The notes beneath the pieces were generated by a model. That model was not told the DNA's origin. It saw only the letters and a list, made by a program, of their open reading frames with translations, and searched no databases. This document shows, one piece after another, positions 11,224-63,001 of a stretch of 64,000 nt of DNA. Source of the DNA: Amphiscolops sp. MND2022 (taxonomy: Eukaryota); NCBI GenBank assembly GCA_964187785.1, contig OZ076409.1:36768001-36832000 (forward strand), in the 5' to 3' direction. Numbering within the stretch: position 1 is the stretch's first letter; each line of letters starts with the position of its first letter. A program made the position numbers and the translations under genes.

Positions 11224-11542
11224 GTTACTTACGGGCTTCACTTGAAACTCAGTCAACTATAACGGGTCGTTATGATAATACATGGAGTTATTTACTATAC
11301 AATTAAATTAAAATTAAAAGAAAAGTTGTTAATCACGTTGCAGTGTGCAATTGTGTACTTAAAAGAATTGTAGGAGTTCTTGAGCCCACTAAAAACTTAT
11401 CTGTCACTTTTTCATCCTCTGATTTGTCTTTCCGAATCAAATAATCTATACAAAAAGCTTTTCACAAATCAGTACTGTTTGTGTGTTTTTTTTCTCCTTG
11501 ACTAAGAGGTTTTTTAGTTTTAGGTACCTACCACCGTTTTAG

Positions 11543-18191: not shown

Positions 18192-18647
18192 TTATTTTCC
18201 GCCCATATTTCATATGGGAAAGGAAAATATTTAAATCAAACGGGTTTTTTTTTTTTTTTTACAAAATTTGCCAAGATTTTATTTATATTTAAATTTAAGG
18301 GTGTTACCCATAGAATTCAACCCACATAAATTTAGCTTCGTGCGATATGTATTTGTAGAGATTTTTGAAGTTTTTTTTAAAAAATGACGAAAATGACCCC
18401 TTAATGACAAAATGACCCCTTAATGACAAAAATTCCCAAATTTCTCATTTTTAAACGTTTTTATGCAATTTTTGCCATTTTTTGAGAGACACCGCGAATT
18501 AGAAAAATGGACAAGATGAATCGAAGCTTTCTTTTCTTCGAACTTCTCAGCGTTTTTATAGTGCATTAGTTATTCTTGAGCCTCATTTATGTAGTTGTAG
18601 AACAGTTCGGGGCGGAAAATATCCCGCTCCTCAGCGGGCGTCTTGTT
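18192..18647 (+). mobile_element. Helentron/DINE-1-like non-autonomous element, family A
   Basis: Subterminal IR TATTTTCCGCCC/GGGCGGAAAATA, 3' hairpin CCCGCT..AGCGGG, ends CGTCTTGTT. Confidence 0.6.
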
Positions 18648-19443
18648 AGAAAAACGTCACGAATTCACCCAATTTTTCTCCGGTTTTTGACTTCATCAAG
18701 AACTGTTTGTGCAAAAAAGTAACACATATCGCGAATTACAATAATAAAAACGTTCCAGACAAAATAACTAGTAATGCAGTACAGTACGCTTTTCAAAATA
18801 AGTTTTTCCGGTTTAACATTACGTCGGATTATGCTGTAATTTCGTGGGTTAGGATAAAAACATTTAATCGAACGAACACGCCATCCACTGTAGGCTTTTG
18901 GAAAAAATGAATTTTCTTGATAGAAAAGTTCTTTAAAATGACTTCCCAAATTGTAAACCCCCCAAAATTGGAATTTTTTTTGCAAATTTCGAGATAATTT
19001 GAAAAGTTTTGTGGGAGAAGAAACAGCAAAGAAAGACTAGCTATGCACTTTGCTTCGTTGATACAAACATTGTCGTTTTGCTCAAAATCATCTCGGAATG
19101 ACTCTAAAAAGTCTAAAAACATCTAGAACGATGTTTTTTGTCCCTATTTTGCTATTTTTGTAAAATTTTTGAGAGAGTTGGCTGATTAGAATTCTAAAAT
19201 TGTTCAACGGCAAACCAAACTTCTAATTAGCATTTTCATAGTGCATTGGCTACTCTTGTGTCTCAAACATATGTTGTTGCTAGAAGAGTGTGAGGCCGAA
19301 CCTATCCCGCTGGTCAGCGGTCGTCTTGTTTTGATTAAACTGTATGTTTGTTTGGTCATGAACTGAAATGATAGATTAGCTTTTGATCATATATTTTCGT
19401 CTGTTTTTGGAGACTTTTCATATGCACATGAATGTTTTTGCAG

Positions 19444-26711: not shown

Positions 26712-28248
26712 TGTCGCAGGCTACCGCCTGCGATGGCCTACTTTATCAAGTCACCCCGGAAGACGACATTAATATTCCAGGACCAGGAGTCCTACCGATC
26801 TAATGGAACTCAAAACTTACGTAACATATTAGTGAGTATTGCTATCTTACTAAACAAACACTTTTTCACGTTATTATGGCGCTTATTTTGATAAATTATG
26901 CAATTTTCCTAAACACTCTGACCTAAGGTCAGTTTGACCGCAATCATTTACTTTTTATTATTTCATATACTGATATGTAAAAATTGTTGATGAACTATTT
27001 TGTCTATTGTGAACCAATCCATACATACAAATATGCAATTAATTGCTTGTTGCAGTTTTGAAATGTAAATTAGAAATCAGTTGAATAAAGCAATGAACTG
27101 GTAAAGGTAAAGGAAACGCGTTCAACTTGTACAGCGCTGCCGTCAAGTTGACGCGTTGTCCAAAATACTTTTAACCAATCAGATTGCGCCAATAGTATAG
27201 TGCTGAAGTCACGCGGACGTTAGGTCCCATTTGCTATTGAAAGCTGTATAATACTCTCAGAAGCATGGAATATTACAGTTCACATGTATTCATTAATATC
27301 TGTTTTGTTGTTGCTTCCATTTATATATTAGAGGACAAGTGACATGTATCAGTTCACCCTAGTTTCTATTTATAGCCAATATTATGTCATAATTAGGTTG
27401 TTGCTATTTTTAATGATGACATCATTAGTATTTTTACTCTATGACGTCCAAAATACTGAGTGTCATGGTGATAAAAGTATATAAACGATGGGTCTGATTT
27501 TGTAAATTCAATTCAATACTGTTGCAGCAATACACATACGCATTGTGAAAGTTAGACAAACTGTTCAATTTACTCTTAAAACGCAAATCTCTCATTAAAA
27601 TGCCCTCAACTAGAAAGCAGAAAGCCAGAGAAAAGCGCTCAAGACAATCAGACGTAATGTCAGACATTGAAAATCTAGAAGTAATGTTGGGAAATTACCA
27701 GGAAGATGATCAAGTTCGGGATGAAGATATTGGTAACACTGATTTTGACTTAGAGTCAAGGGGACCTCAGAGAGAAACTAATTCAATTAGCGGAAACTTT
27801 AGGTCAATATTGAATACTAATGTGAGTGAGAATAGTGAAATTACAGTTGAAACTAGTAGAGCAATAAATTCAGAAATTTCTTCGCAAATGTCTAGGAAAT
27901 TAGATAAAATGATATCAGATCTCAATTCGCATATTCTGAATGCAATTGACTCTGCAATTGAAGAGAAAGTGATTCCCAGCATCAGGAATGCATTGGAAAG
28001 TCAAAATTCATCAAAAAATACAAATACGGACCTTCGGTCAGATGGACCTCATCCGAGTACTTTTGGTCAAGTACGTCCGCAAAGGGACCTTAGGTCAGTT
28101 GGACCTCAGCAACAAATTGCTGGAAAAGCGTCCCAGGATGCTAAGAAAGACTTCCCTAGGTTAGTAACGATGAGTAGTAACCAAATAAATCATCAAAGAG
28201 AGAATTCAGCAGATTCTTGTGGGAGTGATGATGAAAATGGTTACGACA
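26712..28248 (+). repeat. Gypsy 5' LTR (1537 bp), includes gag codons 1-216
   Basis: Direct repeat of 40987-42525, with about 9 substitutions and 2 indels counted by eye. Confidence 0.95.
27366..27485 (+). promoter_or_regulatory. Putative LTR Pol II promoter (MEF2-like x2, CRE-like, TATA)
   Basis: CTATTTATAG 27366, CTATTTTTAA 27404, TGACGTC 27442, TATATAAA 27478; same motif set in the solo LTR at 48687-48820. Confidence 0.5.
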
Positions 28249-29396
28249 TGGTGACAGGAGCCAATCTTACCCCACAAATGGTCCCTGAGTTCCTGACCGG
28301 ACGGCCCATGCAATCCCAAAATGAAATTCCCCATCAACAGTGTGTCCACGATGACACGCTTGATACCACCATCACTGCACAAATACCACCAGTCCCTACT
28401 AACAATAGGGACGTACCCTTTGAAGCACATATAGATCCCATCAACAGACTTGCAGATGTTATTATGGGAATGAATAACAAACCGTCAGCCCAGACACTGA
28501 TGGTACGACCAGTCAATACGACCACACTAACATTTGATGGTAAATCCGAAATGTTTGAACTGTTCGAAGATCTTTTTCACACAATGATAAAGATGCAACC
28601 GGACATGACGGAAACAATGAAAATCAATCATTTTCATTCGCTGTTGCGCAAAAATGCGCTACAGACCTTTCGTAACATCAATTCAGCCAATAGACAAACT
28701 CTTGAGGACATACTAGCAGTCTTCCGGAGGAAATATGTCAAACCCGAGTCTCAGGCAACCGCCAAACACAAATGGCACAAATTAGTATTTGACCCGAATA
28801 CTATGAAACTGCCTGACTTCCTTGAAGAACTCAACCAAGGTGCTGAAAAGGCCTTTGGCGAACATGCCCAAGCAATGATCGACAGTCTGCTGTATGCTAA
28901 ATTGCCGCCCAAACTGAAACGTTCAGTCAATATGGCGCGACTTGAAAACGCAACGTATGAAGAGATTGTCACACACCTCGAACGAGAATTAGAATTGAAT
29001 GGACTTGAGGAAGGTGACGACATTCACGTCCCCACAATGTCCACTGCCCCCACAGCAACACGACCGGGAACTGGCCTCCTTTCGTCTGGCATTGACCCAA
29101 ATGTCACTTGCAACTACTGCAAAAAACCGGGACATGTCAAAGATGACTGCCGAAAACTCAAACGAAAGGAGGAACAAAAGCCCAACGGCGGGCAGGATAC
29201 CAAGAAAGAATATCCCAAATGTCCAACATGCGACAAAACGAATCACCCGGCGGAACGTTGTTGGAAAGGCGCTGGAGCCCACCTCAAGCCCAAAAACCTC
29301 AAATTGGACAATTCCAAAACCGAGGAAACTACCATAGGTCAAGATGACTCCAACAACAAACCTACTACTTCCATTCTCAAAAACCCAAAAAACTAG
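27600..29396 (+). CDS. Gypsy Gag (598 aa), starting inside the 5' LTR
   Basis: TFDGKSEMFELFEDLF capsid-like start; two CCHC knuckles CNYCKKPGHVKDDC and CPTCDKTNHPAERC; ends at A AAA AAC TAG. Confidence 0.9.
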   Translation: MPSTRKQKAREKRSRQSDVMSDIENLEVMLGNYQEDDQVRDEDIGNTDFDLESRGPQRETNSISGNFRSILNTNVSENSEITVETSRAINSEISSQMSRKLDKMISDLNSHILNAIDSAIEEKVIPSIRNALESQNSSKNTNTDLRSDGPHPSTFGQVRPQRDLRSVGPQQQIAGKASQDAKKDFPRLVTMSSNQINHQRENSADSCGSDDENGYDMVTGANLTPQMVPEFLTGRPMQSQNEIPHQQCVHDDTLDTTITAQIPPVPTNNRDVPFEAHIDPINRLADVIMGMNNKPSAQTLMVRPVNTTTLTFDGKSEMFELFEDLFHTMIKMQPDMTETMKINHFHSLLRKNALQTFRNINSANRQTLEDILAVFRRKYVKPESQATAKHKWHKLVFDPNTMKLPDFLEELNQGAEKAFGEHAQAMIDSLLYAKLPPKLKRSVNMARLENATYEEIVTHLERELELNGLEEGDDIHVPTMSTAPTATRPGTGLLSSGIDPNVTCNYCKKPGHVKDDCRKLKRKEEQKPNGGQDTKKEYPKCPTCDKTNHPAERCWKGAGAHLKPKNLKLDNSKTEETTIGQDDSNNKPTTSILKNPKN

Positions 29397-32300
29397 ATGT
29401 GCCACGACTCCACTTTAACGAAAAACTCCGTGTCAGGCAATAGATAATATCTGACCCCCCTACGGTATATTACACTGAACATTACTCTTCACTCAAAGAA
29501 AACTCATCGGCTGACTGGCAGCAGCACGTGAAACACATTCCTAGTAACCTTCAAAAACTGGACCTCCAGTCTGATGGACGGCACTGTAACTTTACCACTA
29601 TTCGTCCTATCCCTCTTGTAGATAACTATAACCCCTACTATCTCGACCCAGACTTTGGTTTCGATCCTTATTGGGACATTCAAATCTACAACCAGCATTA
29701 TTTACATTTCTACAACAATTTTACCAAAAATACCATCGATATAGAACCTGATTCACCCGAGATCGACCAGAATCTCAATACCCACTTGTCCGCGGCGGCA
29801 GTTGACCCTTGGCAAACCACACGAGGTGCTCCCTCTATGGCAACTTATGCCAAACCACAGACGTACCTTCCCCCAGACGGACCTGTGGTCACCCTGACCG
29901 CAACCGTGGCAGAACGCTACATGCACACGCTCATCTCACGAGACGGTGAACCTGATTACGTCCCCTTAACGACGAACTTGGGACTCAAATATAAACGACG
30001 CATGCTCTACTTTCCAATGGATTTTGGCGAACTAACATTAGATGGCCTTGTAGACACGGGAGCGCTATCTAGCGCTATCCCAGAAGCTGATCTACGTAAA
30101 ATCCGCTTATTAGCTCCTCAGTCCAAAATTAAAGAGGGCCCAGCCCCAAACTTCCAAATTATGGTCGCTAATGGACAGTTGGAGACTCCAAAGAGCACAG
30201 TTGAACTCAAATTTGAGGTCGGGGACATCGACTTCCACGAGATATTCATAGTCATGGAAAAACTTACAAGTCCGCTAATTGGTCTCTCATTCCTTCAACG
30301 GAACAACACCATCTTAGATGTGCGGCAGGGAATATTAAATTTCCCATTCTTTTCCATGCAATTGAAAACAGAGGACCACAAATACACTAATGTCATGGAA
30401 CCTATCTGTACCCGAGAGGATATAACTATTCCCCCCAATGACAGACACATGGTCTCCATCTACTCTCAACTATATGACGACACCAACGTCACTGGAATTC
30501 TTCAACCGAGCAATGACCTCGCAGAAGATGGCGATATAACCTTCTGTGCTGCTCTAGTCACACTGACCCAAGGTCAGGTTGCGATCCACGTGAACAATTT
30601 CACCGATCAACCTTACACACTTAAAAAGGGTTCCCACATGGCAAATTTCTCTGTCCTGACCCCAGAACAGATGAAATACGTCAAACCGATTGACCCGGTG
30701 ACCACATGCCACCTCTTACAAGAGAACCCGGAGCATGCCGTCTACTATGCTAGCAGTCTAATCAAATCTCCGAGAAATGACGAAGACAAAGAGAACTATT
30801 GGTTCCCTACCCCAGAAGACCCTGGAGACCCTCAGTCTCATACACCGATCCAACAACGGATTTTGAAAGAACTATACAGCCTCCAAGAGTTAAAAAAACT
30901 CAATCCTCAGGATAACCCTGAGTCCAGAAAACAATTTCTTGCCCATTTTGACTGGACAGATTCTACACTGAATCCAGCCGAAATAACCCAAATTGAGGAA
31001 TTGTTAGTCAAATTCCACGACATCTTCGCTAGACACCGTTTCGACATAGGCATGAATGAAGATTTCAAGGTCAAATTGACTCCTAAAGACGACTCCCCTG
31101 CTTATAGCCAATGCTTACCAACACCAATCAACCTTAAAGAGGACATCCTTGTGGAATTAGGAATGTTACATCGATATGGGATCATAGCAACGCTCCCATT
31201 TTCCAAATATGCAAGCCCTATCTTTGCCCAGAAAAAACCGAATGGTAAACTCCGACTTCTGGTCGACCTCCGAAAGATCAATAATTTGATCTCTGACGAC
31301 TATATTAACAACAACCATCCCGTCAGCACGTTAACAGACGCCGCGCAACATATGGCAGGCAAAAGATTATTTTGCAAACTAGACTGTTCTCAAGCATATC
31401 ACTGCCTCCAGATGGCTGACCAGAGGTCAATTGAGATGCTAGCCTTCAATTTTGCCAGCAGAACATTTGCCTACCGCAGACTTGCACAAGGTCTAAGCAG
31501 AGCTCTGTCAGCTTTCTCGAGCTTTATGCGCGAATACCTGGATAAAGTGATCAACGCGGACCAATGCGCTCAGTACGTTGACGATATTGGAATAGCGGCC
31601 AACAACGCGATACAGCTCATCAACAACCTTCGAGCAACCTTCGAGTGCATTAGGACCGCGGGTCTCAAATTAACCATGCACAAATGTCACTTTGGAGCCA
31701 AAGGAATTGATTTCTTAGGCCGTACCATCACCCCTGAAGGAGTGCGGCCGCAACGACCCAGGGTCCAAAACTTCCTCGAGAAGACAAAATTCCCAAAATC
31801 CAAAAAAGCACTTCAGAGATACTTGGGGTTCCTGAACTACTATCGCAACTACATCCCAAGGCTTTCAGAAAAACTGACACCATTCTTCAAATTACTGAAG
31901 AGCGACGCCAAAGTCATGGTGACTCCTGATCTGCTAGAACAATTCACCGAGATCAACAAAGCTCTTGACCGATGTTCTGAACTTGCACTTAAACAACCTC
32001 TGCCAAACAAACAAATAGCATTGATGACCGATGCTAGTTTCTCGGCAGCAGGTTATGCAGTTCTCATCGAGGATGATCCAATGGAGAAATATAGTTCGAT
32101 GCGGAAAGCCTTCGCACCTGTAGCGTATGGATCCAAGACCTTTAGTCCCGCCCAATTGAAAATGTCCATATACGCGAAAGAATTCTTAGCAATATTCTTT
32201 GCCTTCAAAGAATTTGGACACATCTTTTGGGGGACTCCGAAATCGGTGATAATTCTAACAGACAATAAGTCGGTCACTCGTTTTTTCCAAACTAAAATTA

Positions 32301-34572
32301 TTCCACCAACACTGTGGAACGCTTGTGACTATGTCATGCAGTTCAACTTCACCATAGCACATATACCTGGCAAAAACAACACCGCTGCTGACTATCTGTC
32401 TCGTCTAGAAATCAGCCCTAAAGAAAAACTCATACTCCGCATACGAGAAGACATCTCAATAACGCCCATTGAACTTAACGTCCAATCGGCGGGAGTAACC
32501 GAAGAAGAACAAATATTCTACACGGATGACGACGACGAAACTGAAGAACAAATTTGGAAGCGAAAACGGGACGCCAGGTCAAAACCTTCAAACAACTTCC
32601 CGACATTTTGATGGAAAAACTTAACAAACATGATAGTACATATTTTCAAACTCCAACTTTACAGAAATTAGCCAAACCAATCACCATGGCCATTGAACAA
32701 CAGAATGACATTATCTTACAACAATTGCGATTCAAATTACAAAAAGAGGAATATTCCGAAACCATTTTACAGCAAGATCCACGTTACCGACACTACTGCC
32801 GTCAAATTGACCGTCTGTCCGTCCAGGACGATATCATTTTCCGAGATTATTATGATGAAACTGGCAACGTCCAATTCCGCCAGGCGTTGCTACCGAAACA
32901 CCTTGTCACTGATCTACTCCAATCACTACACGGAGCTGCGAACAAACACCCGGGGATTTCCAAAATGCTTCAGGAAATCCGTCAAAAATATTATTACCCA
33001 GGAATTGCAAAAATTGTCAAAAAATGGGTACAAGGGTGTGAAATCTGTATAAAAGACAAAAGGATCAAAAATACATCGATAACACCAGAATTACTCAACC
33101 TGCCTGAATGGGACCTCGGCCCGGAAGATGCCTTACAAATTGATCTTCTACCTAACCTACCACCTAGTGGAGGATACGAAAACATCATAACGGCCCTAGA
33201 CGTTTTTTCAAGGTACCTTTTCGCCTATCCAGTAACTGACGCATCAGCCACTAGTACAGCAAAAGTACTTATCGATATAATGACCAGACACACTTACCTA
33301 CCAACTACACTGATCACCGACAAAGGAACAGCATTTACGTCCCGCCTAGTTGACGAAATTGCAAAAATCCTAGGCATTCAAATAAAGTGTGCAACGACGA
33401 AACATCCTCAAACAATTGGTAAACTAGAACGCACTCATGCAAGTCTTAAAGGAAACCTTAAAATGGCATCAGGCGAATATCGACGACAATGGCACAAATA
33501 TCTACCATTGGCAGTACTCAATTATAACACGACCTATCATTCAAGCCTAGGATGTGAACCTTCCAGAATTTTTCATGGCCGGATACCGTATAATATCCTA
33601 GACCACAGGTTAGGACTCAATCCTAACCCAAAGATCTTACCTACAACTGATTTTGCGGAGGAATTTCAAAGGCGCACGCAAATACTTATAGACAGAACAA
33701 AGAAAAACATAATGCAATCCTACCTAAAATACAAGGAATACTATGACCGGAAGGCTAAGGCAGCCCCATTAGAACTCGGCGGCTACTGTTTCATTTTGCA
33801 ACCACTAGCTGACCATCAGGGCTCTAAAATTCCATTCCGGGAGTTCAGGTGTATTGGACCTTATGTCATCGAAAAGGTCCTCCCCAATGAGAATTACATT
33901 GTACGCAAACTCAATTCTAACAAGACACAGATCTTACATCGAATCCGATTACGAAAATACACGCCAAACGTTACGCTACAAGACAATCGCCCGCAAGGCA
34001 ATCTGCAAGCGGATGACGAAATCATCATCCCTCAAGACGATTTATATATTATTTCGTGGGAAACGGATTTTGACGAATTTCCCACCGCTGATGCTTCCAA
34101 AAGCAAGTCGGCCGAGTCTTTAGCTGATTCTGATTAACAGGACACTATAATTACAGATTTGGACCTGCGGTCCAACCGACGCGACGAAAATACCGATGAC
34201 GCTACTACTGGGCAGCGTGGAAACGAAAGCTGCGATGAGGACCTTAGGTCAAATCGACGACAACAAGATACTCGCTCAGATGACACTGAGCAATTACCCG
34301 AGCAACCAGACGCAAATATGACCGACACGGAACTTAGGTCAACTCGACCGCAGCAGGATACTGATTCAAAAATGGACGAAACGACCTCTAAACGCCCTTC
34401 AGAAGCGGAAGATTCGGAATTTTTCGATTTTAGAGGCAAGGATATAATCGTGCCCGATTTATCAAACGATGAAAATGAGGAAATGGTTGTAGAAAATGAA
34501 AGTCCCAGGGGAGGGAAATACAATCTACGTCCCAACCCGACTCCAAACTTTAGTGATGAATACAGATACTAG
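29393..34572 (+). pseudogene. Gypsy pol (protease, dUTPase-like insert, RT, RNase H, integrase), disrupted
   Basis: LVDTGA; QYVDD; MTDAS; H..H..CEIC; QIDLL/TDKGTAF/KLER; IGPY module. In the -1 frame relative to gag. Lesions: TAG at 29441-29443, frameshift near 32590, in-frame TAA at 34135-34137. Confidence 0.92.
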
Positions 34573-34725
34573 CAAAAGAAAGTAAATTCGCTACACCCCC
34601 TGATTTTTACTGAATTGGACTCTTGGGGGGCTTTGACTAACTATCGACTCTTTATAACTCAACAAAGACTGAACATCTATATCAAACATAAACACAAGAA
34701 AAGTTCACAAATATACAAAATACAA

Positions 34726-37700
34726 TTAGGATTTACTACATCCAGCAACTAGATCTTCTGCAGAACGGGTCAACTCAGTTTCACTCAGCAACTGCGTGGT
34801 TTTCTTCATCAGTGCCCCATACTTCTTCTTCTTGGCCTTACTGACACTGGATGATTCAGACTCAAGATCCACTGGTGGCGCGGGTTGAAATGAACCTTTA
34901 GGGTCCAACTGCTCCAAAAGTTTAGTACGTCCAAAATAGTCGACGCTCAACCAAGGATAATACACGTCACTTAGCCCCTGTGTCCCAAAATCTGGCTCTA
35001 GCAGAAGAAATTTGGAAATCGACTGCTCGGAAGTAACAGTCTCCACTCCTCGAGGCACATTGCGGAAGTATGATTGTACTGGCAGTATCACGTCAACTTG
35101 ACTGCAGGTCGGATCTTCAGTATTAACTGAGCCGAAAGTAACAACTGGCAAACTCTCAAAGGGTTCATCCAAGCAAAAGCAGGCAAGACGAAACAACTTG
35201 TACAACAAGGGACGACTGGTCAATGATGCCTGAGCTACTAAGAAATCGACAGTGTCTTTCACGAACAGGGTAGGCTGTATGAGATCAGGAAAAGTCTGAC
35301 GCATCACGTCAACGAAGGAACGATACTCTTCAGTGCAGGGACACTCTTGATCAAGGGAGAAATAGCCCCTGGGTCGGAAACTCGTAAATAACTGCCTGTG
35401 GCAGTACATGGCATGTTCTATGGACCCAGTCAATAGAGTTTCAAGGTCAAACGAACCCAGTCCTTTCACCAGATCAGTGGTCAAACTATTTTGGTGCTGC
35501 ATTGAATTGAAGAGATGTGTGACGTAACTCCGTGCAGCTCGTCCAAATTCTTCTTTATGCTTGCCAGACAGGGCATCTAGAGGCAAGCCTTCAGTTTGTT
35601 TGTCCTTTACGTCACGCTCAGCTTTGGCCTTACATGCGTTGTCTAATTTTGTGCCCAGCTTGATCCGAGTTATGAACTCAGAAACACTAAGTGCAGCGAC
35701 TCGCTTTAGGTCCAGTTCCAAGATCTCTGACCATTGGTCCTCAGGAGGGATGCCTTTGGGACTAGCACATCTGCGGGCAAGTGTGAGGAGATACTGGCAA
35801 AGTTGGCGAAAGTATAAAACCCTCGCTCTCTGCGGCCTGACAAGCTGATGGAGAAACTCGTTGCATCTAAACATCATAAATATTCAACGATATTGATTAA
35901 GGTGTAATTCCCAAGCAGGAGAAAACTTGACTAACAATCACGCGAGAGCTTTTGAAACAACTCCAATTTACAGGTGAATAAATCGTCACACAATATATAC
36001 CATTCCAAATTCTGAGGCTAGAATAGAACAAGACCATAATCAGCAGGTTATTCAATTAAGGACCTTAAGTCAAAATGACCACACCAATTTACCTGCTTGG
36101 ACACTCCCATCATGGGATAGTACAGAGAGTGAGCGGTTAGGAATTCGGTAACAGAGCTCCAGTTGTTCAACAATTCACGACATAGAATGTGAAGCTTCGC
36201 AACATCAAGTCGACAATCACGAATAGCCTAAACCAGAGATCAATTTGAGACTGACAGAAAAGAGTTATATAAAACAAAGGAAGCAGTGATGCTAACCCTA
36301 GCCAATTCAGGGGTAACGAGAATCCACTCTAGGTCGAGACTTCCTCCGAGGCAAACGACAATATACTTGATCACAGCATAGAAGTTTATTCTGCCGAAAA
36401 CGCTGTAGCTCTTCTTATGCATGACCGTCTCCAGAGAAATTTCCTCAAAGCGCTTTCTGCTCTGGACGGCCAGTGAGAAAAGGGGACACTCATCTAGTAA
36501 CTGGACTAAAGATTGGGTACAGCCACTACAACACACAGGACTAGCGCGAGGAGAAATTGCTGCCAAGAGGTAAGACAATAGGCACAACTCTGCTGAGGTC
36601 TGCCCGACTGTGCGTCCAGTTCTTCGGATCAATACTCGACACAATTGACCCTCATGCCAAAACCGAAGGTGGAGAAAGAGCATGGCCCCTTCTGTTCAAA
36701 CTCGAGTGCGTAGAACCCGCTGCTCAGCACGTGATTGGCCAAATCTTCTAGCAGTTGGACGAAGATGTGATGAAATAGCACCTGCAAAACAACAGAGTAC
36801 ACGTTTAACCAAGGAAGAAGACAGTGCTTACATTGGGTCCACTTAGATTACAGATGAGGGGTTGATGATATCACAAAACCTAAGTTGACCTTAGGACAAA
36901 CAAACACGCAATTATTACTTACAGACAAACGCTCTTTGCCCCAGTTGAAATCTGTGAACAGTGACTGGTGGTTAGCAACCACCCCAATGTCTTTCCAAAG
37001 TTCACGTAGCGTTCCAAGGTTCCCGAAAGTCGGCAAAGCGTGACCCAGGATGGAGATCTGAACCCTGACGCGATTTTCAGAGGAAGAAGCCATATGGTCA
37101 TGTCCCGCCATAAACTCGTCGTAGAAGGGTAACTTCACGCCTATGTCTACCAACTCGACGTCAATGAACTTTGGCAATTCAGCTTCCAGTTCTAGAGGGG
37201 AAAGCAACTTCCCGTCCCTGCCCCAGGACATGATGATGGACAACTTGAGTCACAGGGTCCACGACGCCAAGGTGCTCATAGCGCCAACGTTGATCCTTGC
37301 GCAGATGACGCTCGGTAGCATGATGACGTAAAATTTCTTTTGGACCTCTGCCATAGATCGAAACGTTGCCCTTACAAATCTGGCAGTAAAATTTGTAGCG
37401 GTTCCATTTGGGATCCATAGGTCCTGAAACGAAGGTGCGAGCCCAAGACATACCCTTGAAGTATTCTTCACGCATAATCTTACAGGATCTTCCTACGCCT
37501 CGGTGCGAGCTTCTAGTTTTGGCTTTGGAGGACTTCTTTGGGTGTTTTTTGGACCTGTCTCGTTGGGCCTCATGCTTTAACTCAGCTAAGGTCTGAGCGC
37601 CCGGACTAGCACATGACTGATTTGGAATTGTGGACCCAAAGTCGCCCTGACCACAACCCGAAGGAGGAGGAGTGATCGCTTGCATTGATGAACCTTGACT

Positions 37701-39074
37701 GGAAGCAACCTCATGCGAGTATTCAGTTCCCCAAAAGTCTGACTCATTCAGATCAGGACCACTAGTGTAGCTGCCTCCTTCGGACGTAAAACCACATGAA
37801 GTCCCTTCACCTTCTGAATCGGACAAGGGAGTACGTGGAAAGGGACTCTTGCACCGATCATCCCGTCTGGTCGCCGCTCTCTCTCCCAGGCTCATCCTGC
37901 TGGCACGCATTACTACGCTGTTGAGCATTTCAAACGAGGAACGCGCGGTCTCATCTGCCACAACCTTCAAAATGTGCTCGATCTGATCGTGATTGAATGC
38001 TACAGTTGGATGGCCTCGAGGAAGACTTATAGGTTGCGACTCAGAGAAGTATTTGCGGATGACCTCTCGGCTGGTGGAAGATAACGTTGCTGACTTACTG
38101 GCTGCAGGACGCTCAGGCTCTGAATCAGTTCCGCTAGTTTCGTCACTTGGTAATCCTTCTAGTCTCGGTTGGCGCGCTGTCAAAGCATCAGCTAGAGTAG
38201 ACCGTGCGTAAGCATTGGAATCAGCGTCACTCTCAACTGGAGTTACTGCATCACTGGTTGTGGCTGCAAAGTTTGCCGCAGAAACTGGTCGGGAAGGGGA
38301 CTTGAGGTCAGACTGACCAGACGCTTCGGGAACGGTGGATGCAATACTAGGTTCCACAGAGGAAATTTCAGCCTCCTCAATCACAGAATTGATGGGTACA
38401 CGGTTTTTCTTCCTGTCAGGATCCTTGTTATCATCTTTCAGACTGGACTGAAGGTATCTTGTTGACGGGTTAAAAGAGATCACTTTCGGGCTATCAGAAC
38501 TTTGCGTGGGCTCAGGCGAGGATTTTTCAACTTGGGGAAACAAAGTCAATTGTCCACTTTCGCTCGATTTTTCCACCGAAGTGGCTTGCACTTCATATTC
38601 GTTCAGACTGGTCTCTAGCGCTGCCAATTTTCGAGAAATGTATCTCCCACAACTTTCGTCGGACCCGCTACTGCTGATAGCGTATCCTGGAGCTGCGGGC
38701 GACTCATTTTGCGCTGGCGCAGAAGTGACACCAGATCCACTAACTGTAGCTTCAGGCTCAGGAGTGGTCATTTCTACATCAGTAGTCTTTTCAACAGACT
38801 TGGATTCAATGAATGGCTGCTGTTCCTTCCGCACTTCCGGACTGGGTGAATCAGCAGGAACGAGTTCGAGAGTCTTCGGTTCAGCAGCATTGGTCTTGCT
38901 CTCATTGTCGTCCTTTGCAAGTTGAGACGTAGTGCTAAGATATTCAGTGTCATCGGAATTCTCCTGGCTAACTTCCATAGTTTCTACTGCTTGAGGAGTT
39001 AGTTGGCCAATTTGCTCATTATCTAAATGAAAAGAAATGAATTGACGCGGTTCACTTCCTGCAAATATGTCCAT
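34726..39074 (-). pseudogene. Antisense intron-containing accessory gene (BED-like Zn finger, hAT-transposase-like), frameshifted in this copy
   Basis: ORF pieces 39074-37179, 37243-36923, 36781-36297, 36227-36093, from 36017, and 35877-34726. GT-AG introns at 36922-36782, 36296-36228 and 36092-36018. CQIC-x15-HH-x4-H finger at 37391-37305. Confidence 0.65.
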
Positions 39075-40160
39075 CTTACCGCAATTTCAAAGACTTCCGG
39101 AAGCAAGTTCAAATGTTCACGCTCAAAATGAGTTGTTCACGATGGAGGAAGTAGCAAAGTTAAATGAAAGCCCTGATCAAGTTTGAATTTAACAACTTAA
39201 AGAACCAACCTGAAGGCACTTCCATGACGGAAGGTCTGAATTTTCCTCGTTTAGTCGTCACCCGGTGTTTCACTGGAGAATCGGGGTGTTTCGTTGATGG
39301 GGATTTCTCTCCGCTACGTCGGGATACTGTTAGCTGGGACGGTATTATGATTGGAAAGGCACTTTCTGACTGACGTAGACAGCTACTAGTTTCACAGTAA
39401 TATCAGAATTAGAAAGAAGTTGACCGTAAGTCAATTTGACGAGACTATAATTGGCCCACTATAGATATGACTAATACTTTATGTAGCTATATAGACCATT
39501 GGTCACATAGTCTACACGACTTTACTTCTCATATTTCGCACAATGTGTTTGAACTTCTATTTCCGCTTTACTCTGATTAAACTAAAGCAAGACGGATTAC
39601 TTACTAACTACTTTGTAATTTTTATTTATTAATTATGGACGTCGTGGCTACATGCTAAAGATCACCACCTATAACAATCATATCTATATATACAAAATGA
39701 AATTTTCCTTGTTGCGGAACCTGCCAGTGAAGTACTCGGATCAATTTCATTTTCCTTTTCCCATCTTTTATGCGATTATTCTTTCACCATTAGCCTCATT
39801 ATTTCAAATTCATCAGCTTCAGCAGCCATTTTATGCTATTATTATCATCACGCACTGGGATTGGCTACTTGAGTTGGTGCCGCCGAACTGACCGACGGTC
39901 TTTGAAGAAATTTGTTGACAGAGAATTAACAACTATCACACTTATAACGTCAAGTGACGCCTTTGAAGAACTGAATAAAAAACAATATTAAGAGGCAATT
40001 AACAACCCCAGCCGATAAATTGGTTGAAAATCTTTTGCGGAACTAGATAAGAATAAAACCTAAACAGGAAAAGCTAACCGATGGTCCGAGTAAAACCCCG
40101 CGCTTGTTTCCCGCTAGAATCGGGGTTGGACCTAAGGTCAGATAGACCGCAGAAATTTAC

Positions 40161-41078
40161 TTGCCTTATTATCATCTCGAAAACCAGTCGCTTAAAATTT
40201 TCGAAAGCAAAATTGCGAAAAAGATACTTCTCCAACGGTATATCGGTGACATGGCGTTACAATTCAACTGCGATCCCTACCCAAGGTCACTGGTAGATTT
40301 GAGCTACCAATCGTCAGAGGAAGATATGGATGTTGATTCCATAACCTCGACTCATGATGTGCAAGATTCCGTTAGCGACGATGACGACATTCAAGTCTTA
40401 GCTTGCTATCGCATCAGCCCTGAATTTCCCCAGCAATTAGTAGCAGGCCGTGCGATGACCACGGAAATCACCGAATATCTCAACGATCTTAACTTGCCAA
40501 GCAGTGAATTAGTTGAATCCGCAAGTACCTTTTCTGAACCGTCAAATTCCCTAGTGGACTGGTTTATTGGTAATCCACCACCCTCTTATTATGGACAATC
40601 AATTAGCAATCACCCGATCGCACACTGTAGCCAGGTTGACCCAGTGTCGGACTCCCCCCTTTCGCCGCCGCTGATTGATCAGCAACCTACATATGACTCC
40701 CGCCCGGATGACCACCAGTCACTTACTCGGGAAAGTTGGACCAACAATCCCCATATTACAGGACTTGGAATAAGCATGAGCGGGACCTGCGGTCAGCCAA
40801 ATGACGTCTATCATACAGGATGCATTGTGTGCGGTAAGAGTTACCCAGCAATCAAGGAGGAAATTACGCTGGGATATTTAGAGAGCATTCATATTCAAGG
40901 AGAAACATATGAGACGAGAATGGCAAAGCGCTACGCTTTTGAAGCAGGAATGAATGCGGGATCATTCATTCTTGTACCCCGGGGAGTGTCGCAGGCTACC
41001 GCCTGCGATGGCCTACTTTATCAAGTCACCCCGGAAGACGACATTAAATTTCCAGGACCAGGAGTCCTACCGATCTAA
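40161..41078 (+). CDS. Accessory ORF of unknown function running through the PPT into the 3' LTR
   Basis: 305 open codons (first ATG 40251); H-x2-CIVC motif; last 29 codons conserved with synonymous changes in the solo LTR at 48074-48163. Confidence 0.7.
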   Translation: MPYYHLENQSLKIFESKIAKKILLQRYIGDMALQFNCDPYPRSLVDLSYQSSEEDMDVDSITSTHDVQDSVSDDDDIQVLACYRISPEFPQQLVAGRAMTTEITEYLNDLNLPSSELVESASTFSEPSNSLVDWFIGNPPPSYYGQSISNHPIAHCSQVDPVSDSPLSPPLIDQQPTYDSRPDDHQSLTRESWTNNPHITGLGISMSGTCGQPNDVYHTGCIVCGKSYPAIKEEITLGYLESIHIQGETYETRMAKRYAFEAGMNAGSFILVPRGVSQATACDGLLYQVTPEDDIKFPGPGVLPI

Positions 41079-42525
41079 TGGAACTCAAAACTTACGTAAC
41101 ATATTAGTGAGTATTGCTATCTTACTAAACAAACACTTTTTCACGTTATTATGGCGCTTATTTTGATAAATTATGCAATTTTTCTAAACACTCTGACCTA
41201 AGGTCAGTTTGACCGCAATCATTTACTTTTTATTATTTCATATACTGATATGTAAAAATTGTTGATGAACTATTTTGTATATTGTGAACCAATCCATACA
41301 TACAAATATGCAATTAATTGCTTGTTGCAGTTTTGAAATGTAAATTAGAAATCAGTTGAATAAAGCAATGAACTGGTAAAGGTAAAGGAAACGCGTTCAA
41401 CTTGTACAGCGCTGCCGTCAAGTTGACGCGTTGTCCAAAATACTTTTAACCAATCAGATTGCGCCAATAGTATAGTGCTGAAGTCACACGGACGTTAGGT
41501 CCCATTTGCTATTGAAAGCTGTATAATACTCTCAGAAGCATGGAATATTACAGTTCACATGTATTCATTAATATCTGTTTTGTTGTTGCTTCCATTTATA
41601 TATTAGAGGACAAGTGACGTAATGTATCAGTTCACCCTAGTTTCTATTTATAGCCAATATTATGTCATAATTAGGTTGTTGCTATTTTTAATGATGACAT
41701 CATTAGTATTTTTACTCTATGACGTCCAAAATACTGAGTGTCATGGTGATAAAAGTATATAAACGATGGGTCTGATTTTGTAAATTCAATTCAATACTGT
41801 TGCAGCAATACACATACGCATTGTGAAAGTTAGACAAACTGTTCAATTTACTCTTAAAACGCAAATCTCTCATTAAAATCCCTCAACTAGAAAGCAGAAA
41901 GCCAGAGAAAAGCGCTCAAGACAATCAGACGTAATGTCAGACATTGAAAATCTAGATGTAATGTTGGGAAATTACCAGGAAGATGATCAAGTTCGGGATG
42001 AAGATATTGGTAACACTGATTTTGACTTAGAGTCAAGGGGACCTCAGAGAGAAACTAATTCAATTAGCGGAAACTTTAGGTCAATATTGAATACTAATGT
42101 GAGTGAGAATAGTGAAATTACAGTTGAAACTAGTAGAGCAATAAATTCAGAAATTTCTTCGCAAATGTCTAGGAAATTAGATAAAATGAGATCAGATCTC
42201 AATTCGCATATTCTGAATGCAATTGACTCTGCAATTGAAGAGAAAGTGATTCCCAGCATCAGGAATGCATTGGAAAGTCAAAATTCATCAAAAAATACAA
42301 ATACGGACCTTCGGTCAGATGGACCTCATCCGAGTACTTTTCGTCAAGTACGTCCGCAAAGGGACCTTAGGTCAGTTGGACCTCAGCAACAAATTGCTGG
42401 AAAAGCGTCCCAGGATGCTAAGAAAGACTTCCCTAGGTTAGTAACGATGAGTAGTAACCAAATAAATCATCAAAGAAAGAATTCAGCAGATTCTTGTGGG
42501 AGTGATGATGAAAATGGTTACGACA
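40987..42525 (+). repeat. Gypsy 3' LTR (1539 bp)
   Basis: Direct repeat of the 5' LTR; gag ATG lost by a 1-bp deletion near 41880. Confidence 0.95.
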
Positions 42526-42937
42526 TCTGATTTCTGTTCTTGAAACAACCGAGTTACCCTCCTTCAATCTTTAGTAGAAACATCTTTTTGTGCGCATCGA
42601 GGGCTTCTCCGATTTTTCGGCAGTGTGCTACTTATCGAAGATGTTTTTTGAAAAAAAATGATTCCAAAAAGTTTTCCACTCATTTTTTGGTTTTTAAGGT
42701 TTCTGTTTTAAACAAATCTGAAAAAAAAATGAAATCTGAAATATTTTCGAATCTCAAAGGTTTCAATAGTTCCAAAGAAAAGTTTCAATAGTTGCTCCTG
42801 AATGTTTCAAACACTTTGCTCTTTTTGAACCTTGAGCGGTGCGTCGACTTGGGCCATTCCCGGCCTGTTTACATTTTGTGTGAGTGTAAAATGAAATTTA
42901 TCAAATTGGAAAGACTCAATTTTTTGTGTGTTTTCAG

Positions 42938-45075: not shown

Positions 45076-45300
45076 TTATTTTCCGCCCCCACAATTCGGA
45101 GGAAAGTCGCCACCTGTTGGCTTTTTTTCCAAATTCCGCCAAATCTCCACTTTGTTACTCCATTTAATATGTGGATATTTCAGTCACCGTGCCCACTTGG
45201 TAGTGCGTCCGTCTGGCAAACTGGAGGTCGTGGGTTCGAACCCGGGCTGTAGCCTGAAATTTTTATGGCGGGAAATATCCCGGTGCTTAGCGGGCGTCTT
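45076..45300 (+). mobile_element. Family A repeat copy with tRNA-like core
   Basis: Family A termini; TGGTAG...GGTTCGAACCC. Confidence 0.6.
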
Positions 45301-45538
45301 TTATTTTAAAATGTTGCAATTTGGGGAAAATGTTTGGTCAACAATTGATTGATATACAATAGTAACCTGGTTCTTCAATATGGCGGAATATCAACGCTTT
45401 TCAAGTCCTCAGAAATTAAATGAGAAAGTAATCAATGACTCGAACAATGGTCGACACATTCACCAAAGATGGAAAGTTTGGATGAATAATCTTCAGTTTC
45501 CACCCGATCTTTTATGTACGCGTCGCAATGTCTTTTAG

Positions 45539-47930: not shown

Positions 47931-48999
47931 TTTAATAGAAAAGAGAAAGGTCTTCCACAGATTTTACAGAGTGGAAAATTAGGTTCGAAGCAATGTATTC
48001 AATGATTTCTTCCTGAAAAAAAGCTTGGAACAATGTTCCCCAAAGGCATCATAAAGTGACAAAATGCCAAGTGTCGCAGGCTGCCGCCTGTGACGGCAAC
48101 AAGTACCAAGTGGCCCCTAACGACAGTCACTTGTATTACATACCCGGAGTCCTACCTCTGTGATTAGTTGGACAATTGGTCCCTTTGCCTTAAACTTTTT
48201 GACTTGATTTAGTATGTTTAATATGTAAATTATTTTAGTTTACTATTATTGAACATGTAACGTATATTAGTGTTAATGTAAACCAGAAAAGGATGATCGA
48301 TGTTTATCTGTATGATAATTGAAACAGGTACTGTAATTAAGCTGTATGCAATAAAGGAAACGCGTTTAAAGTGAAATTCACTTTGGTCAGTTCGACGCGC
48401 AGTCCATTTTGATTATTATCCAATCACGTGCTAGTATTCATCATTCACTTAGTCTGCCTGTTCAGTTTGTAGTATTTAGTCAAACGGACTACCAGTCCGC
48501 AGTGCTGTAGTTGCTAACGATATTTAGTCGGAAGGACCACCGGTCCGCAAAGACGTAATATTTACATCAGCGTACTGTGCAAACAAGCGCTAACCTTTCA
48601 AGCTACGCACAACGTGATTTGAAAGGCAGACCGCCTGTCAGTCCATATCTCATTCTCCCATTCAAAGACCCATAACCCAAACGATGCTATTTTTAGATAT
48701 GATCCAATAATGACGCAATGTTGACGTCAGGACCTAGTGTCATTTTGACCATGTTTAGTGGCTATTTTTAGTAACATGACCACTGAAATTATGCTTGTCA
48801 TGCACCATTTAGTATAAATAGGTGATTCTCATTGTCCTAGGGACACAACTTTCGAATACGACGATATAAACACAAATCACAAACTGTTGCTCATTGATCA
48901 ATCTTTGTTATTGTTCTGTTCTTTTCATTTTCTCTCAGTTCAAGTTTAGTTAACTGATAAAAGCTCAATACACTTTTTTCTGAGCAATAAATTCTTCAA

Positions 49000-49910
49000 A
49001 TGCCTTCGACGAGAAAGCAAAAGGCTAGGGAGAAGAGGTCAAGACAATCGGACGTGATTTCCGACTTAGAGAATGTAGATATAATGTTAGGAAATTACTC
49101 CAGAAATGAGTTAGATAGTCAGTTAGGAGAAAGAGAGACTGAGTTAGACCTTGAGCCTAATGGCCTTCAAACTGCAAACCCTATTAGTGAAGACTTCAGG
49201 TCACTGAATAATACCAATAGTAGGGAAAATAGCGAAATTACCATTGAGACCGCAAGGCTGATAAATAATGAAATCACGTCCCAGGTGACAAGGAAACTAG
49301 ATGAAATGAGAAGTGATTTGAATACACAAATTTTGGAGGTTATCAACTCAGCACTTACTGAAAAGGTACTACCAAGCATTCAAAACGTACTAGGAGTTAA
49401 AAATTCGGAATCAGACGCAATTAGGGACCCACAGTCCAGTAGACTAAACAGGAGCCCCGAAGATCACTTTGGCCATATGGACCACCAGTCCCAAGGACTT
49501 AATGAGGGCCTCAGAGAATATTCCAATAGTGTGGACCACTGCTCCAATGAACTAAATAACAAGGGCCGTAGAGATCAATCTTGTTACGCGACCCACCGGT
49601 CCAGAGGACTAGATAAAGGCCTTAGAGTCTGTTTTCAGGCCAGACGGACACCAGTTCAATAGACCAAACGACAATTCAGGAGACCAGTATGGTCAAACGG
49701 ACTACAGGTCCCCAAGACAAGACAAAGGCTCTAAAGGTTACAGCGGTGTATTGGCCAACAGGTCCATCAGACCGGATAACAGCTCAGGAGAGCATTTAGG
49801 CCCACAGGACCAACAAAACTGCATGAAAGCAGATAAGAGATTCAGCAGTCATAGAGGTTTGAATACTGAGATCTCAACGGACTCCCAGACCTCAGAACAA
49901 GATTGCGACA
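49000..49910 (+). pseudogene. Gag N-terminal segment encoded by the solo LTR (frameshifted)
   Basis: MPSTRKQKAREKRSRQSDV identical to the Gag at 27600; 220-aa ORF, then a second frame ending ...EQDCD at the LTR end. Confidence 0.85.
49425..49812 (+). repeat. Degenerate ~54-bp tandem array (7-8 units) inside the LTR-encoded Gag
   Basis: Each unit starts with a GGACYnnnRGTCC-like palindrome (49425, 49479, 49533, ~49590, ~49646, 49699, 49753). Confidence 0.75.
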
Positions 49911-54495: not shown

Positions 54496-55200
54496 GTTGG
54501 CAGGCCTTCAAGTTCTATCATCCCATCCCAAATTGAAGGGTTGTTTGGTCATTTATGTCGGGAGACAGCTCTTCCTTTGATAATAGCTTTGAAAAGCTGT
54601 TTTTGCTGCAGAAAATTATGAAGTCGAAGAGAAAGCTCGAATTTTTTTTCAAAACCGATGCAGTTTGATTGATCTGAACAGTTTGAATTAAAAGGCTATA
54701 TTAGCACGCTTACACAGAAGATTTGTGGTTGTTTTGTTGATATGTACCATTTTGTTCGAAATTTTTAATCACAAAGGAGATGATTAACTTCGAGCATATG
54801 AACTTTATACTTCTGAAACTTTCCGGCAACTTAACCTTGGCTTTAAAAAAAGACCAAGATTTTTCGAGAAATTGGCTTTAAACGTGTAACATTTCTTTTC
54901 CAAACAGAGACTGACACAATTGTGTGTTAATATGCCAATAGAGGTTGCATAGTATCGAAAATGTTTTGAGTGATTCTCAGTGGACTATGCAAAAAATAGT
55001 GCAGTCAGCTAACATTCACTGCGCATGTAATCGATTGGTTGCAGCGAAATCCAGTGTTTCAACCATTGGAGTGGGTTGACACTCCATGCATGTCGTATTA
55101 CGATTTGCTACGATTGCGTCTCCATCACGTGAGAATCTTAGCAGTGATCAGGGTTACCGAAATTAATATTTTGGTAATATTGTAGCCAAAAATACTTTTA

Positions 55201-55491
55201 TTATTTTCCGCCCACATATAATGGGGGAGGAAAATCATGATCTGTGTTGGTTTTTTTTCCAAATTCTGCCAAATCCCCTCCCAGTTCCTCCCACTTATAG
55301 TTACTTGACTATCTTGGCGCCATCCACTACTTGACTACTTTATATAGTTACTTGACTATTTTAGTTACTTGAACTGAAATCTCCACCATGGTAGTGCGTC
55401 TGCCTGGTAGACACGAGGTCGTGGGTTCGAACCCAGGCTGATGCGTTACATTTTTAGCGGAAAATATCCCGGTGCTTAGCGGGCGTCTTGT
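55201..55491 (+). mobile_element. Family A repeat copy with tRNA-like core and internal AGTTACTTGACT repeats
   Basis: Family A termini; B-box GGTTCGAACCC. Confidence 0.6.
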
Positions 55492-55981
55492 ATTATTTCT
55501 ATTCTCAAAAAATAAATAATTGCAAACATTTGTTTCAAAAATAAGTTATTGCAATAATTGCAAAAATTTCACAATATAATTCTACAATCATATGAGTTTT
55601 GAAACAGTTTCTGCCGACCAGAGTTCCCTGTTATAATGGAAAATTTGAATGCCTCCATATGCAGTGGACCTAAGAGACGGTTATGGGTTATAATCCAGTC
55701 AATCCATGCAAAAATATTGTAAGCTTTTGCTGAAACTTTATTGCAGAATTATTTTGGCGGTTAAATAAATAATTTGTATTTCGAGATTCGAAAAGAAAGT
55801 ATTTTTGTTGAAATGATTTTTTCGGTAACCCTGGCCGTGATAGTGTTACCATTCGTATTAAAATTGGCGTGATGTCGTAGTAAGATCGTACTAAGAAACG
55901 TATGATACAGTTCGTATACAGTGTTGGCAAAGCACACCATAAACTCAAAAGAATAGTTTCAGCTTCAAGCCTAATTAACCA

Positions 55982-59458: not shown

Positions 59459-60195
59459 CTGGAACAGATTTGAAATGGTGAAACTCAATTGTTGGTTCAT
59501 TCTACAATTATATACGAATCTGGCACTCGATATTTTGAAACCGTCGTTAGGGTCATCGGATTTTTCAAACAATCAAACCATGTCATGAAGTTGGAATCCC
59601 CCACATACGTACGTGGGTTATTCCGACAGTTTTCATGCAAAAAATTGCGAAACCTTGTGAGAATACCCATTTTTGAAAAGCAGAATTGTCTATTCGACAT
59701 CCCAAATAGATGAATTGAACTTTCGTTTTCTTATTGGATCTCAACTTTCGACTGTTTTTGGCCATTGGTTTTCATGTTTTTTGATATTTTTGTAGGTATG
59801 ACTTTTTACAGTGTTCAAAAACAAAACAAATACCATTTTACCATTATCTTGTTCAGAGATTTTTTTTCAAAAAATAACCAAGATGAACGTAAAAACCAAA
59901 TTTTTCAGATTTTCAAGTTTTGCAAGTTCATAGTTTACTTGGTAAGCTCGAGTCTGAGAATCTGTCTTCGTTCAATTGTTTTGAGCGAACATTTTCTTGC
60001 TGTCAAGCGGGCGTCTTGTTTTAAATTTAGTGAGCAAAGGTTTAGGATACCTTGGAACGTTTCTAAACGAAAAACTCCAGGTTTCATTTCCATAAAGCTA
60101 CCGAAAAGTTTTTGACGTAAAACTAGTCTGAACAGATACTAACTGTGATGCTTTTTAGCTCTATTTTCCCGAACAAAATTTGATTCTCACTTTAG

Positions 60196-60482
60196 TTATT
60201 TTCCGCCCACATATAATGAGGGAGGAAAAAAATCATAATATGTGTTGCGTTTTTCATTTTCCGCCCACATATATTGGGGGAGGAAAATCATAATCTGTGT
60301 TGAGTTTTTTTTTTACAAATTTTGCCAAATCTCCACTTTATTACTCCATTTATTGAACTCTAGTCACCATGGCTCAGTTGGTAGTGCATCTGCCTGGGAG
60401 ACACGAGGTCGTAGGTTCGAACCAGTGCTGATGCGTTACATTTTTAGCGGAAAATATCCCGTTGTTTAGCGGGCTTCTTGTT
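60196..60482 (+). mobile_element. Family A repeat copy with tRNA-like core
   Basis: Duplicated 5' end; A-box GGCTCAGTTGG and B-box GGTTCGAACC. Confidence 0.6.
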
Positions 60483-61970: not shown

Positions 61971-63001
61971 ATACTTTCATATAACCAATTTTAACTGTTA
62001 AAAATTCGAATTTCGGCGTTGCTTTGACACAAGATCAGAGAACAATAAGTCAGTCGATCTTTGACGACAGTCGAAAGTTGTTTAATTGTTTGCAAAGAAG
62101 TTTATCGAAAAACACGAATGATTCCAAGCTTTGTTTTGTCAGTGTCGTCATGTCTTGGGCTGCTTGGCATAGTTTTACAATTTTAGTATGTGTTCGAAGT
62201 TGTGATCATTGCTATTAATATTGGCTTCATTCACTGGGCCAAAACAGAGAAAAGAGAGCATGAATTTTATTATTTTCCTCCCACATAAATAATAGAATTT
62301 GGCTGGAAATAACAAAAAGCATAGAACCTAATAAAATTAGAACTCGGCAATATTTGGGAAAAAGCGGCCGAAGTTTGCATATCTTTTGACATGTCGCAAA
62401 GAACATTTTGTTCAGCCGCTTTTCTGCTTTCTCAGAGGTTCTGGCTCCGAATGTAACTAGGAAACAATTAAGTTCATAGCATATGTATCCATAGACACAT
62501 TCGATTTTCTGAAAAAGTCTTAAAATGTGATGTTCCTCAAATTGTTTCTCTTTTTCTCTAATTTTCTGCTGTTTTACTCCCATTTTGAATAACTATTGTA
62601 CGTTTTTCGTGGGAAAGATTTTTCAAAGAGTTAAACGACAAAAATTCAGCTTCCTACTATACTTTATCACATAGAGAAAGTAACATTTATTTTTCAACAA
62701 GTATTTGAATTGAACAAAAACGTTTTGAAATTTTCATTTTAAAAAATTATGCAAGTTTCGTCGTGTATTTGTGGCAATCGTGGCCTAAACCCATCTTGTT
62801 GCTAAACCGAATTTTTGGCGGAAAAGCTCAAAGCTCAGTAAGAATTACCCCAAAGCTCAAGCGTGACTTTTTTTCAAGTTTTTCTCATTAATTGAAAGGA
62901 CGTTTTCCCAACTTCAAGAGTGAGAAGCTTTGCTGTTATATTCAGAATAACACCAAATGCTATTTTATGATGCAAAACACTGTTATAATTACCAAATGCT
63001 A

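Follow-up and report, generated by a model that had tools for sequence, protein, structure and literature searches.

The window, a 64,000-nucleotide stretch of DNA from Amphiscolops sp. MND2022, contains a 15.8-kb LTR element of the Ty3/gypsy type at 26712-42525, with LTRs of ~1,540 nt each. Both LTRs have TG...CA ends, the element is flanked by a TCTGA target-site duplication, and the 5' and 3' LTRs are 99.2% identical. Since the two nearly identical LTRs differ at 13 columns, the insertion is young. The element and a solo LTR beyond it comprise the following features.

26712..28248, plus strand: 5' LTR, 99.2% identical to the 3' LTR, with the TCTGA duplication
27600..29396, plus strand: gag, beginning within the 5' LTR and continuing through the primer-binding-site position
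29444..34572, plus strand: pol (protease, dUTPase, RT, RNase H, integrase), in several frames in the window copy
34726..39074, minus strand: antisense accessory gene with a C2H2-type finger, probably spliced, frameshifted near 37200 in the window copy
39075..40250, no strand assigned: spacer separating the two divergent accessory genes (sense and antisense), candidate two-way internal promoter
40251..41078, plus strand: accessory ORF of 275 aa, its last 30 codons within the 3' LTR
40981..40986, plus strand: PPT position, where a short run of purines abuts the 3' LTR, within the ORF
40987..42525, plus strand: 3' LTR with TG...CA ends, a TATA-like box at 41756 and a copy of the first ~216 gag codons
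41359..41364, plus strand: AATAAA of the earlier note, at chance level
48072..49910, plus strand: solo LTR of a sister subfamily, with a CCAAG duplication and the ORF tail at 48074-48163

A Pfam scan of the pol frames gave the order protease-dUTPase-RT-RNase H-integrase and detected no chromodomain in them, and Ty3 RT was among five PDB matches for pol, the reading frame of which is broken into several frames in the window copy. A dUTPase between protease and RT also occurs in rotifer, planarian, and fungal elements, according to portions of PMC5408684 and PMC6431247. The first ~216 gag codons are held in the LTR (27600-28248 and 41877-42530), likewise in the solo LTR from 49000 onward, and the bases right after the 5' LTR (28249-28270) start with TGG, as expected of a primer-binding site. 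A 55-nt block of U3 (27108-27162, 41383-41437, and 48352-48406) is 71% kept between the LTR subfamilies while the rest of U3 has diverged; the block contains ACGCGT and GACGCG words and is a candidate enhancer. No Rfam matches were returned over 26000-50500. The window is identifiable as animal DNA from an exon for a dynein heavy chain (10564-11262) together with a BEL/Pao element (894-8388), which has identical 159-nt direct repeats and a single open frame of 2163 codons. Short dispersed and inverted repeat families (9352-10267, 17493-19330, 45122-45303, 55197-55492, 60192-60481, and 62994-63709) are probably non-autonomous elements in dynein introns.

The accessory ORF and the stretch directly preceding it contain the following smaller features.

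40209..40250, plus strand: 14-codon conserved stretch preceding the Met, candidate extension from ATT 40212 or DNA/RNA signal
40290..40325, plus strand: parallel SIM-like motif, residues 14-25, hydrophobic plus a Ser-Ser-acidic run, degenerate in the window copy
40371..40400, plus strand: anti-parallel SIM-like motif, residues 41-50, an acidic run and then IQVL
40653..40670, plus strand: predicted phosphorylation site with an [ST]PxSP motif at residues 135-140, present in 16 of 17 divergent members
40821..41021, plus strand: C-terminal domain with CxxCG and a predicted helix pair plus strand, putative zinc binding
40988..41009, plus strand: LTR-terminal hairpin, overlapping codons 246-253

The earlier note had begun this ORF at 40161. 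Comparison across homologues moved the start, as TTG 40161 lies in an unconserved stretch and the family start is ATG 40251, with many homologues of 270 to 277 aa beginning at the Met equivalent to that position. A search with the open frame found 92 of 557 candidate proteins related at E<=1e-3 (homologous clusters; identity, 38 to 96%), and a profile search returned 527 matches at E<=0.001 among 1.84 billion representatives; in the best 150 of these 527, no protein was longer than 283 aa and no integrase fusion was seen. Full-length frames persist at identities as low as 22 to 31%, cluster sizes reach 101 and 136 members, and the family is abundant and diverse. The homologue records listed are without names; apart from one JGI/IMG member, their source is ENA assemblies. 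In 200 of 218 motif-bearing proteins, the C terminus lies 27 to 32 residues past the LTR-edge motif. A DNA pattern scan yielded three metagenome contigs, with L002 and L003 encoding the ORF across the LTR edge, while none of 171 pattern matches in viral contigs was confirmed. Of the 29 residues in the solo-LTR tail, 28 match in the full-length proteins P0060 and P0200, so the solo-LTR subfamily has the same ORF.

Upstream of the family Met, conservation extends a short way. In a set of 24 distinct N-terminal extensions, biased toward copies with an open upstream frame, Ile-Ala occurs at -13/-12 in 19 and Arg at -5 in 20, and conservation fades past -14. The stretch is present in L002 (848-816, minus strand) and absent from L003. 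The ATT at 40212 has a purine(-3)/G(+4) context; four of the 24 extensions resemble this DNA read in a shifted frame, a pattern that would be compatible with a signal at the DNA or RNA level. Judged by these patterns, a non-AUG start at ATT 40212 and a DNA or RNA signal appear equally probable explanations of 40209-40250.

The 30-codon LTR tail of the ORF aligns without gaps to 48074-48163 of the solo LTR, which is present as described and has a target-site duplication, and 17 of 29 residues plus the stop are in common. The codons comprise 10 identical, 8 synonymous, and 12 non-synonymous; compared with random placement of the same substitutions, the P value is 0.029 for the synonymous count and 5e-5 for amino acid identity. 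The tail frame has a BLOSUM score of 84, compared with 14 to 44 for the other frames. As previously claimed, the non-coding DNA after the tail barely aligns (identity of 24 to 45 of 90 in the eight next blocks versus 56 of 90 in the tail). The first 23 nt of the LTR form a hairpin of 9 to 10 bp in all five DNA copies (window, solo LTR, and L001 to L003). Of the six synonymous swaps cited in support of selection, tgc/tgt and gat/gac sit in the hairpin stem with pairing kept, so these two are not independent evidence. Over the 22 codons past the hairpin, the identical, synonymous, and non-synonymous counts are 5, 6, and 11 (P value of 0.025 for synonymous changes and 0.0004 for amino acid identity), a modest signal. 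Mismatches by codon position are 11/9/15 in the tail (30 codons) versus 5/1/18 in gag (34 codons), and the LTR tail is under weaker constraint than the start of gag.

Stronger evidence came from the 56 codons between CxxCG and the LTR edge, a segment picked via conserved anchors that speaks for the C-terminal domain and not for the entire ORF: 16, 15, and 15 codons are synonymous in three pairs, against null means of 4.9 to 6.0, and these counts were reached by at most 1 of 3000 nulls. In this segment, pS is 0.69 to 0.81 and pN is 0.34 to 0.44. Control frames have pS near or under pN, except for one antisense frame with a pS of 0.60 in two of three pairs, as expected if third positions are shared with the ORF. 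On codon-level evidence, the ORF is thus protein coding and under purifying selection upstream of the LTR. That the ORF is no gene, its conservation being due to an integrase attachment site and the LTR hairpin, has next to no probability: residues 246-254 are indeed the most conserved block (mean, 0.94) and coincide with the hairpin kept in five of five copies, so that such a signal applies to the first eight LTR codons, but it is ruled out as the sole explanation by the synonymous excess outside the hairpin, across the 56 codons that precede the LTR and, less strongly, across the 22 that follow the hairpin, and by the full-length frames that persist at 22 to 31% identity. The claim of a real accessory gene was therefore borne out by intact homologues, by codon-level selection outside the LTR, and by the 28/29-residue tail match.

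The transcript signals proposed for this gene fared less well. AATAAA is present in both LTRs of the element (27084 and 41359) and in the solo LTR (48350), but the site in the solo LTR is displaced relative to a shared downstream motif and so does not occupy the homologous position, and shuffled sequence holds at least one AATAAA with probabilities of 0.54 and 0.31. Separate polyadenylation is thus not indicated by a word at chance frequency, and AATAAA was rejected as evidence for it. The site at 41359 lies upstream of the TATA-like box at 41756, and genomic RNA that used it would lose R. The suggested splice acceptor, a CAG that ends at 40152, is pyrimidine poor (5 pyrimidines among the 15 preceding bases) and was rejected as unsupported.

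An antisense accessory gene starts at 39074, back to back with the sense ORF and separated from it by a 1.18-kb spacer. Of 161 candidate proteins, 149 belong to its family, with no name attached to any of the 120 listed, and 14 of 16 members gave a sub-threshold C2H2 finger match. The first long frame of the gene stops just past a GTAAGT donor-like site at 36922, which suggests splicing; 0 of 5324 candidates were longer relatives of the 385-aa antisense piece, which is weak evidence. Between the sense and antisense family lists, 17 longest-contig sizes coincide by eye, a weak sign of linkage because long contigs may hold many elements. A hAT-transposase origin of the antisense gene was considered and was unsupported on follow-up analysis.

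No TATA match was found in the final 460 nt of the spacer in any of three DNAs. ATTGG words are common to this region in the DNAs compared, TTTCCCGC was found in two of three upstream regions (P values of 0.013 and 0.025), and CCAAT counts in upstream regions were at chance level; individually, these promoter words are weak. On the minus strand of the spacer, at ~39660-39829, a short frame with one internal stop has a W-x5-E-[IV]-D-P pattern in common, by eye, with L003 (~1130-1250, plus strand), and is possibly a small ORF or exon.

The ORF protein is acidic, as first noted, with a net charge of -23 over residues 1-160; the C-terminal part of the window protein is net acidic too (-4). The prediction of no transmembrane segment held by hydropathy window (best 19-residue value, 0.89), and among full-length members the value exceeds 1.6 in just 2 of 147. 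The N termini likewise displayed, by eye, no signal-like, myristoylation, or MGxxxS/T start. The H-x2-CIVC motif stood in part: the cysteines are conserved, as CxxCG, but the histidine is not, and His188 was rejected as a zinc ligand. Across 24 divergent members, the conserved columns are Ser21-Ser22, Cys126 to Pro139, His168, and CxxCG at 191-195, with further clusters in the hairpin block, along the helix pair, and at the very C terminus. From this conservation, Cys126, His168, Cys191, Cys194, and Cys252 are candidate zinc ligands; Cys252 is fixed by the hairpin as well. Only five Cys/His columns are conserved at 75% or more, below the requirement of a RING, and Pfam scans of 51 and 90 members detected no RING family.

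Pfam, PHROGs, and PDB sequence searches gave no significant match for the ORF protein, and the ESM Atlas held nothing usable for the whole protein or for residues 160-262. The full-length AlphaFold2 model has a mean pLDDT of 37.3, with values below 50 over residues 1-187; low confidence is no proof of disorder, and the N-terminal two thirds are, going by the model, likely disordered. Folded alone from residue 158, which excludes the conserved Cys126, the C-terminal part reached a mean pLDDT of 65.9, with helix pair blocks of 82 to 93. The best Foldseek E values for this model were 2.4 (PDB) and 1.8 (BFVD) and the best VIA Z score was 3.8, weak scores that indicate neither a new fold nor the absence of a known one.

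SUMO-interacting motifs (SIMs) are loose motifs, defined in the part of PMC12751080 drawn on here by a four-residue hydrophobic core with an adjacent acidic or phosphorylatable run. In members at 22 to 31% identity, an N-terminal hydrophobic core is followed by Ser-Ser and acidic residues, an order that gives the layout of a parallel CK2-phosphorylatable SIM as outlined in the same portion of PMC12751080. In the clade of the window copy, the parallel motif is degenerate, and the layout found instead is anti-parallel, with the acidic run preceding the hydrophobic core. With patterns written after viewing the alignment, 16 of 17 representatives matched one form or the other (parallel, 9; anti-parallel, 7). 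A rule based on PMC12751080, its thresholds our own and set after the alignment was seen, matched within the N-terminal 80 residues in 13 of 17 representatives at <55% identity, compared with 2.0 expected from shuffles and 1 of 17 beyond residue 80; the four that failed were L002, L003, P0050, and P0181. Among full-length members, the same rule matched 88 of 127; among control windows taken from antisense-family proteins, it matched 5 of 60. These counts are over related homologues and are not independent. Some members have the parallel motif without the anti-parallel one, and vice versa, and a tree of the C-terminal domain (22 rows, with the forms assigned by us) separates the two forms by one change (support, 92/85). 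Such a swap, although a single event, fits a function that was kept while the sequence of the motif moved. The N-terminal acidic region is therefore predicted to carry a SUMO-interacting-like motif, as seen in 13 of 17 divergent members.

These features raise the tentative proposal, to which we give somewhat less than an even chance, that the ORF encodes a nuclear SUMO-binding adaptor that would keep its own element active by shielding it from SUMO-dependent silencing. We lean slightly toward transcription of the ORF from an internal promoter common with the antisense zinc-finger gene. The N-terminal motif would probably act as a CK2-boosted SIM that binds SUMO. More doubtfully, the C-terminal domain would bind zinc and attach the protein to a partner or to the element, perhaps via the antisense protein. 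The net effect would be competition with host SIM-bearing silencers (SetDB1/Wde-type complexes), leaving the LTR active. In flies, SUMO-SIM contacts recruit SetDB1/Wde in piRNA-guided transposon silencing, as set out in part of 10.1101/533091, and repression based on SUMO is countered by ICP0, a viral protein with SIMs, as reported in PMC3174244. No basic nuclear localisation signal was evident by eye in the ORF protein. A wider version, which seems unlikely, would make the two genes a cassette with one two-way internal promoter, in which the antisense zinc-finger protein recognises the element and the SIM protein blocks SUMO-dependent heterochromatin. A SIM could equally recruit silencing or guide integration.

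The ORF might instead encode a Tas-like transcriptional activator, with an acidic activation region and a C-terminal nucleic-acid-binding domain, that is expressed from the internal promoter and switches on the LTR; the SIM-like motifs would then be activator motifs. Transcription activation domains are likewise acidic-plus-hydrophobic patches. The charge of -23 over residues 1-160 is consistent with this, as are 2 to 5 Lys/Arg in the second helix region, in 20 of 24 members matched by pattern, and the position of the ORF, which adjoins the 3' LTR and a candidate internal promoter and recalls foamy virus tas/bel2 as presented in part of PMC3798896. However, the C-terminal part is itself net acidic in the window copy (-4), the hydrophobic core of divergent members lies directly before the Ser-Ser-acidic run in the described SIM layout, and no sequence relation to Tas was found, with no significant Pfam, PDB, or BFVD match. 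We therefore hold an activator to be the less probable explanation, albeit one with a substantial minority claim.

The same SIM motif evidence could point to an adaptor that targets integration or associates with particles, its SIM holding the pre-integration complex on SUMOylated chromatin, and the Pfam scan without a chromodomain in the pol frames fits such a role. The ORF is nevertheless separate, and the size limit of 283 aa in the best 150 of 527 matches leaves no integrase fusion in view, which makes this role rather improbable. A self-restraint factor, recruiting SUMO-dependent repressors to the element and limiting copy number, is slightly more improbable still. The SIM does not give the direction of the effect, and, per portions of a review (PMC6719617), broad anti-silencing would harm the host and elements evolve self-control; against this, the insertion is young and the family is both diverse and abundant, with clusters reaching 101 and 136 members. 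An Env substitute or cell-fusion protein is very improbable and largely ruled out by sequence, since the low hydropathy, here and in nearly all full-length members, and the acidic N terminus with no signal-like or myristoylation start outweigh the env position of the ORF and the short fusogen-like ORF3s known from parts of PMC5408684 and 10.1101/2025.03.14.642691.

The shielding adaptor would bear on a gap in the field. As of 2019, the relevant part of PMC6719617 knew of no transposon anti-silencing factor against either the piRNA pathway or the KRAB-ZFP pathway, a statement from which later work may differ, and SUMO-SIM contacts are a core step in both pathways alike, according to a section of 10.1101/533091. 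The question of transposon anti-silencing becomes testable with a predicted SIM protein that is retained by an abundant family with recent insertions. If the two-gene cassette were real, it would represent an animal transposon-encoded antagonist of piRNA-type transcriptional silencing. A full-text literature search, to which supplements, Repbase, Dfam, and most subscription journals were external, gave no description of the ORF family, and existing annotation may have been overlooked; the main text of PMC9911081, on an LTR-rich invertebrate genome, contains neither 'accessory' nor 'ORF'. The family is thus a large one, nameless in the records listed and with no matched fold, yet it carries a recognisable, testable motif. 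An ORF overlapping the LTR, a divergent antisense gene, and a gag start in the LTR give an Env-less element an organisation like that of a complex retrovirus.

Extra ORFs 3' of pol are already a known kind in LTR retrotransposons, and in foamy viruses bel2 overlaps U3. What appears new here is the SIM-like N-terminal motif, followed by a serine-proline motif and a CxxC helical domain, and the back-to-back antisense zinc-finger gene. The bdelloid elements Juno, Vesta, and TelKA are alike in being Ty3/gypsy elements in which a dUTPase separates protease from RT and pol is followed by an extra ORF; as covered in part of PMC5408684, however, the proteins encoded by their ORF3s are of the Env, TM, coiled-coil, GDSL, or DEDDy kinds, none of which the window ORF matches, and the window ORF differs in overlapping the LTR and in its pairing with a divergent antisense gene. 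Foamy virus tas/bel2 are similar as accessory genes 3' of the canonical genes with an internal promoter (a candidate one here), while the window element is without env or sequence similarity and its partner gene is antisense (PMC3798896, in part). Among MDG1-group elements, sORF1 and sORF2 are likewise two accessory ORFs of Env-less LTR elements, with sORF1 nuclear, but sORF2 is a 63- to 107-aa transmembrane protein, whereas the window ORF is 275 aa, acidic, and without a TM segment (portions of 10.1101/2025.03.14.642691). HSV-1 ICP0 resembles the window protein in its SIM-like motifs, its small Cys-rich domain and, probably, its mostly disordered chain, and differs as a ubiquitin ligase, the window protein having no RING or other ligase family match (PMC3174244). 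Finally, VANC21 and VANC6 of VANDAL elements are also element-encoded accessory proteins proposed to relieve host silencing; according to part of PMC6719617, they belong to plant DNA transposons and act on DNA methylation, whereas the route proposed here would run through SUMO.
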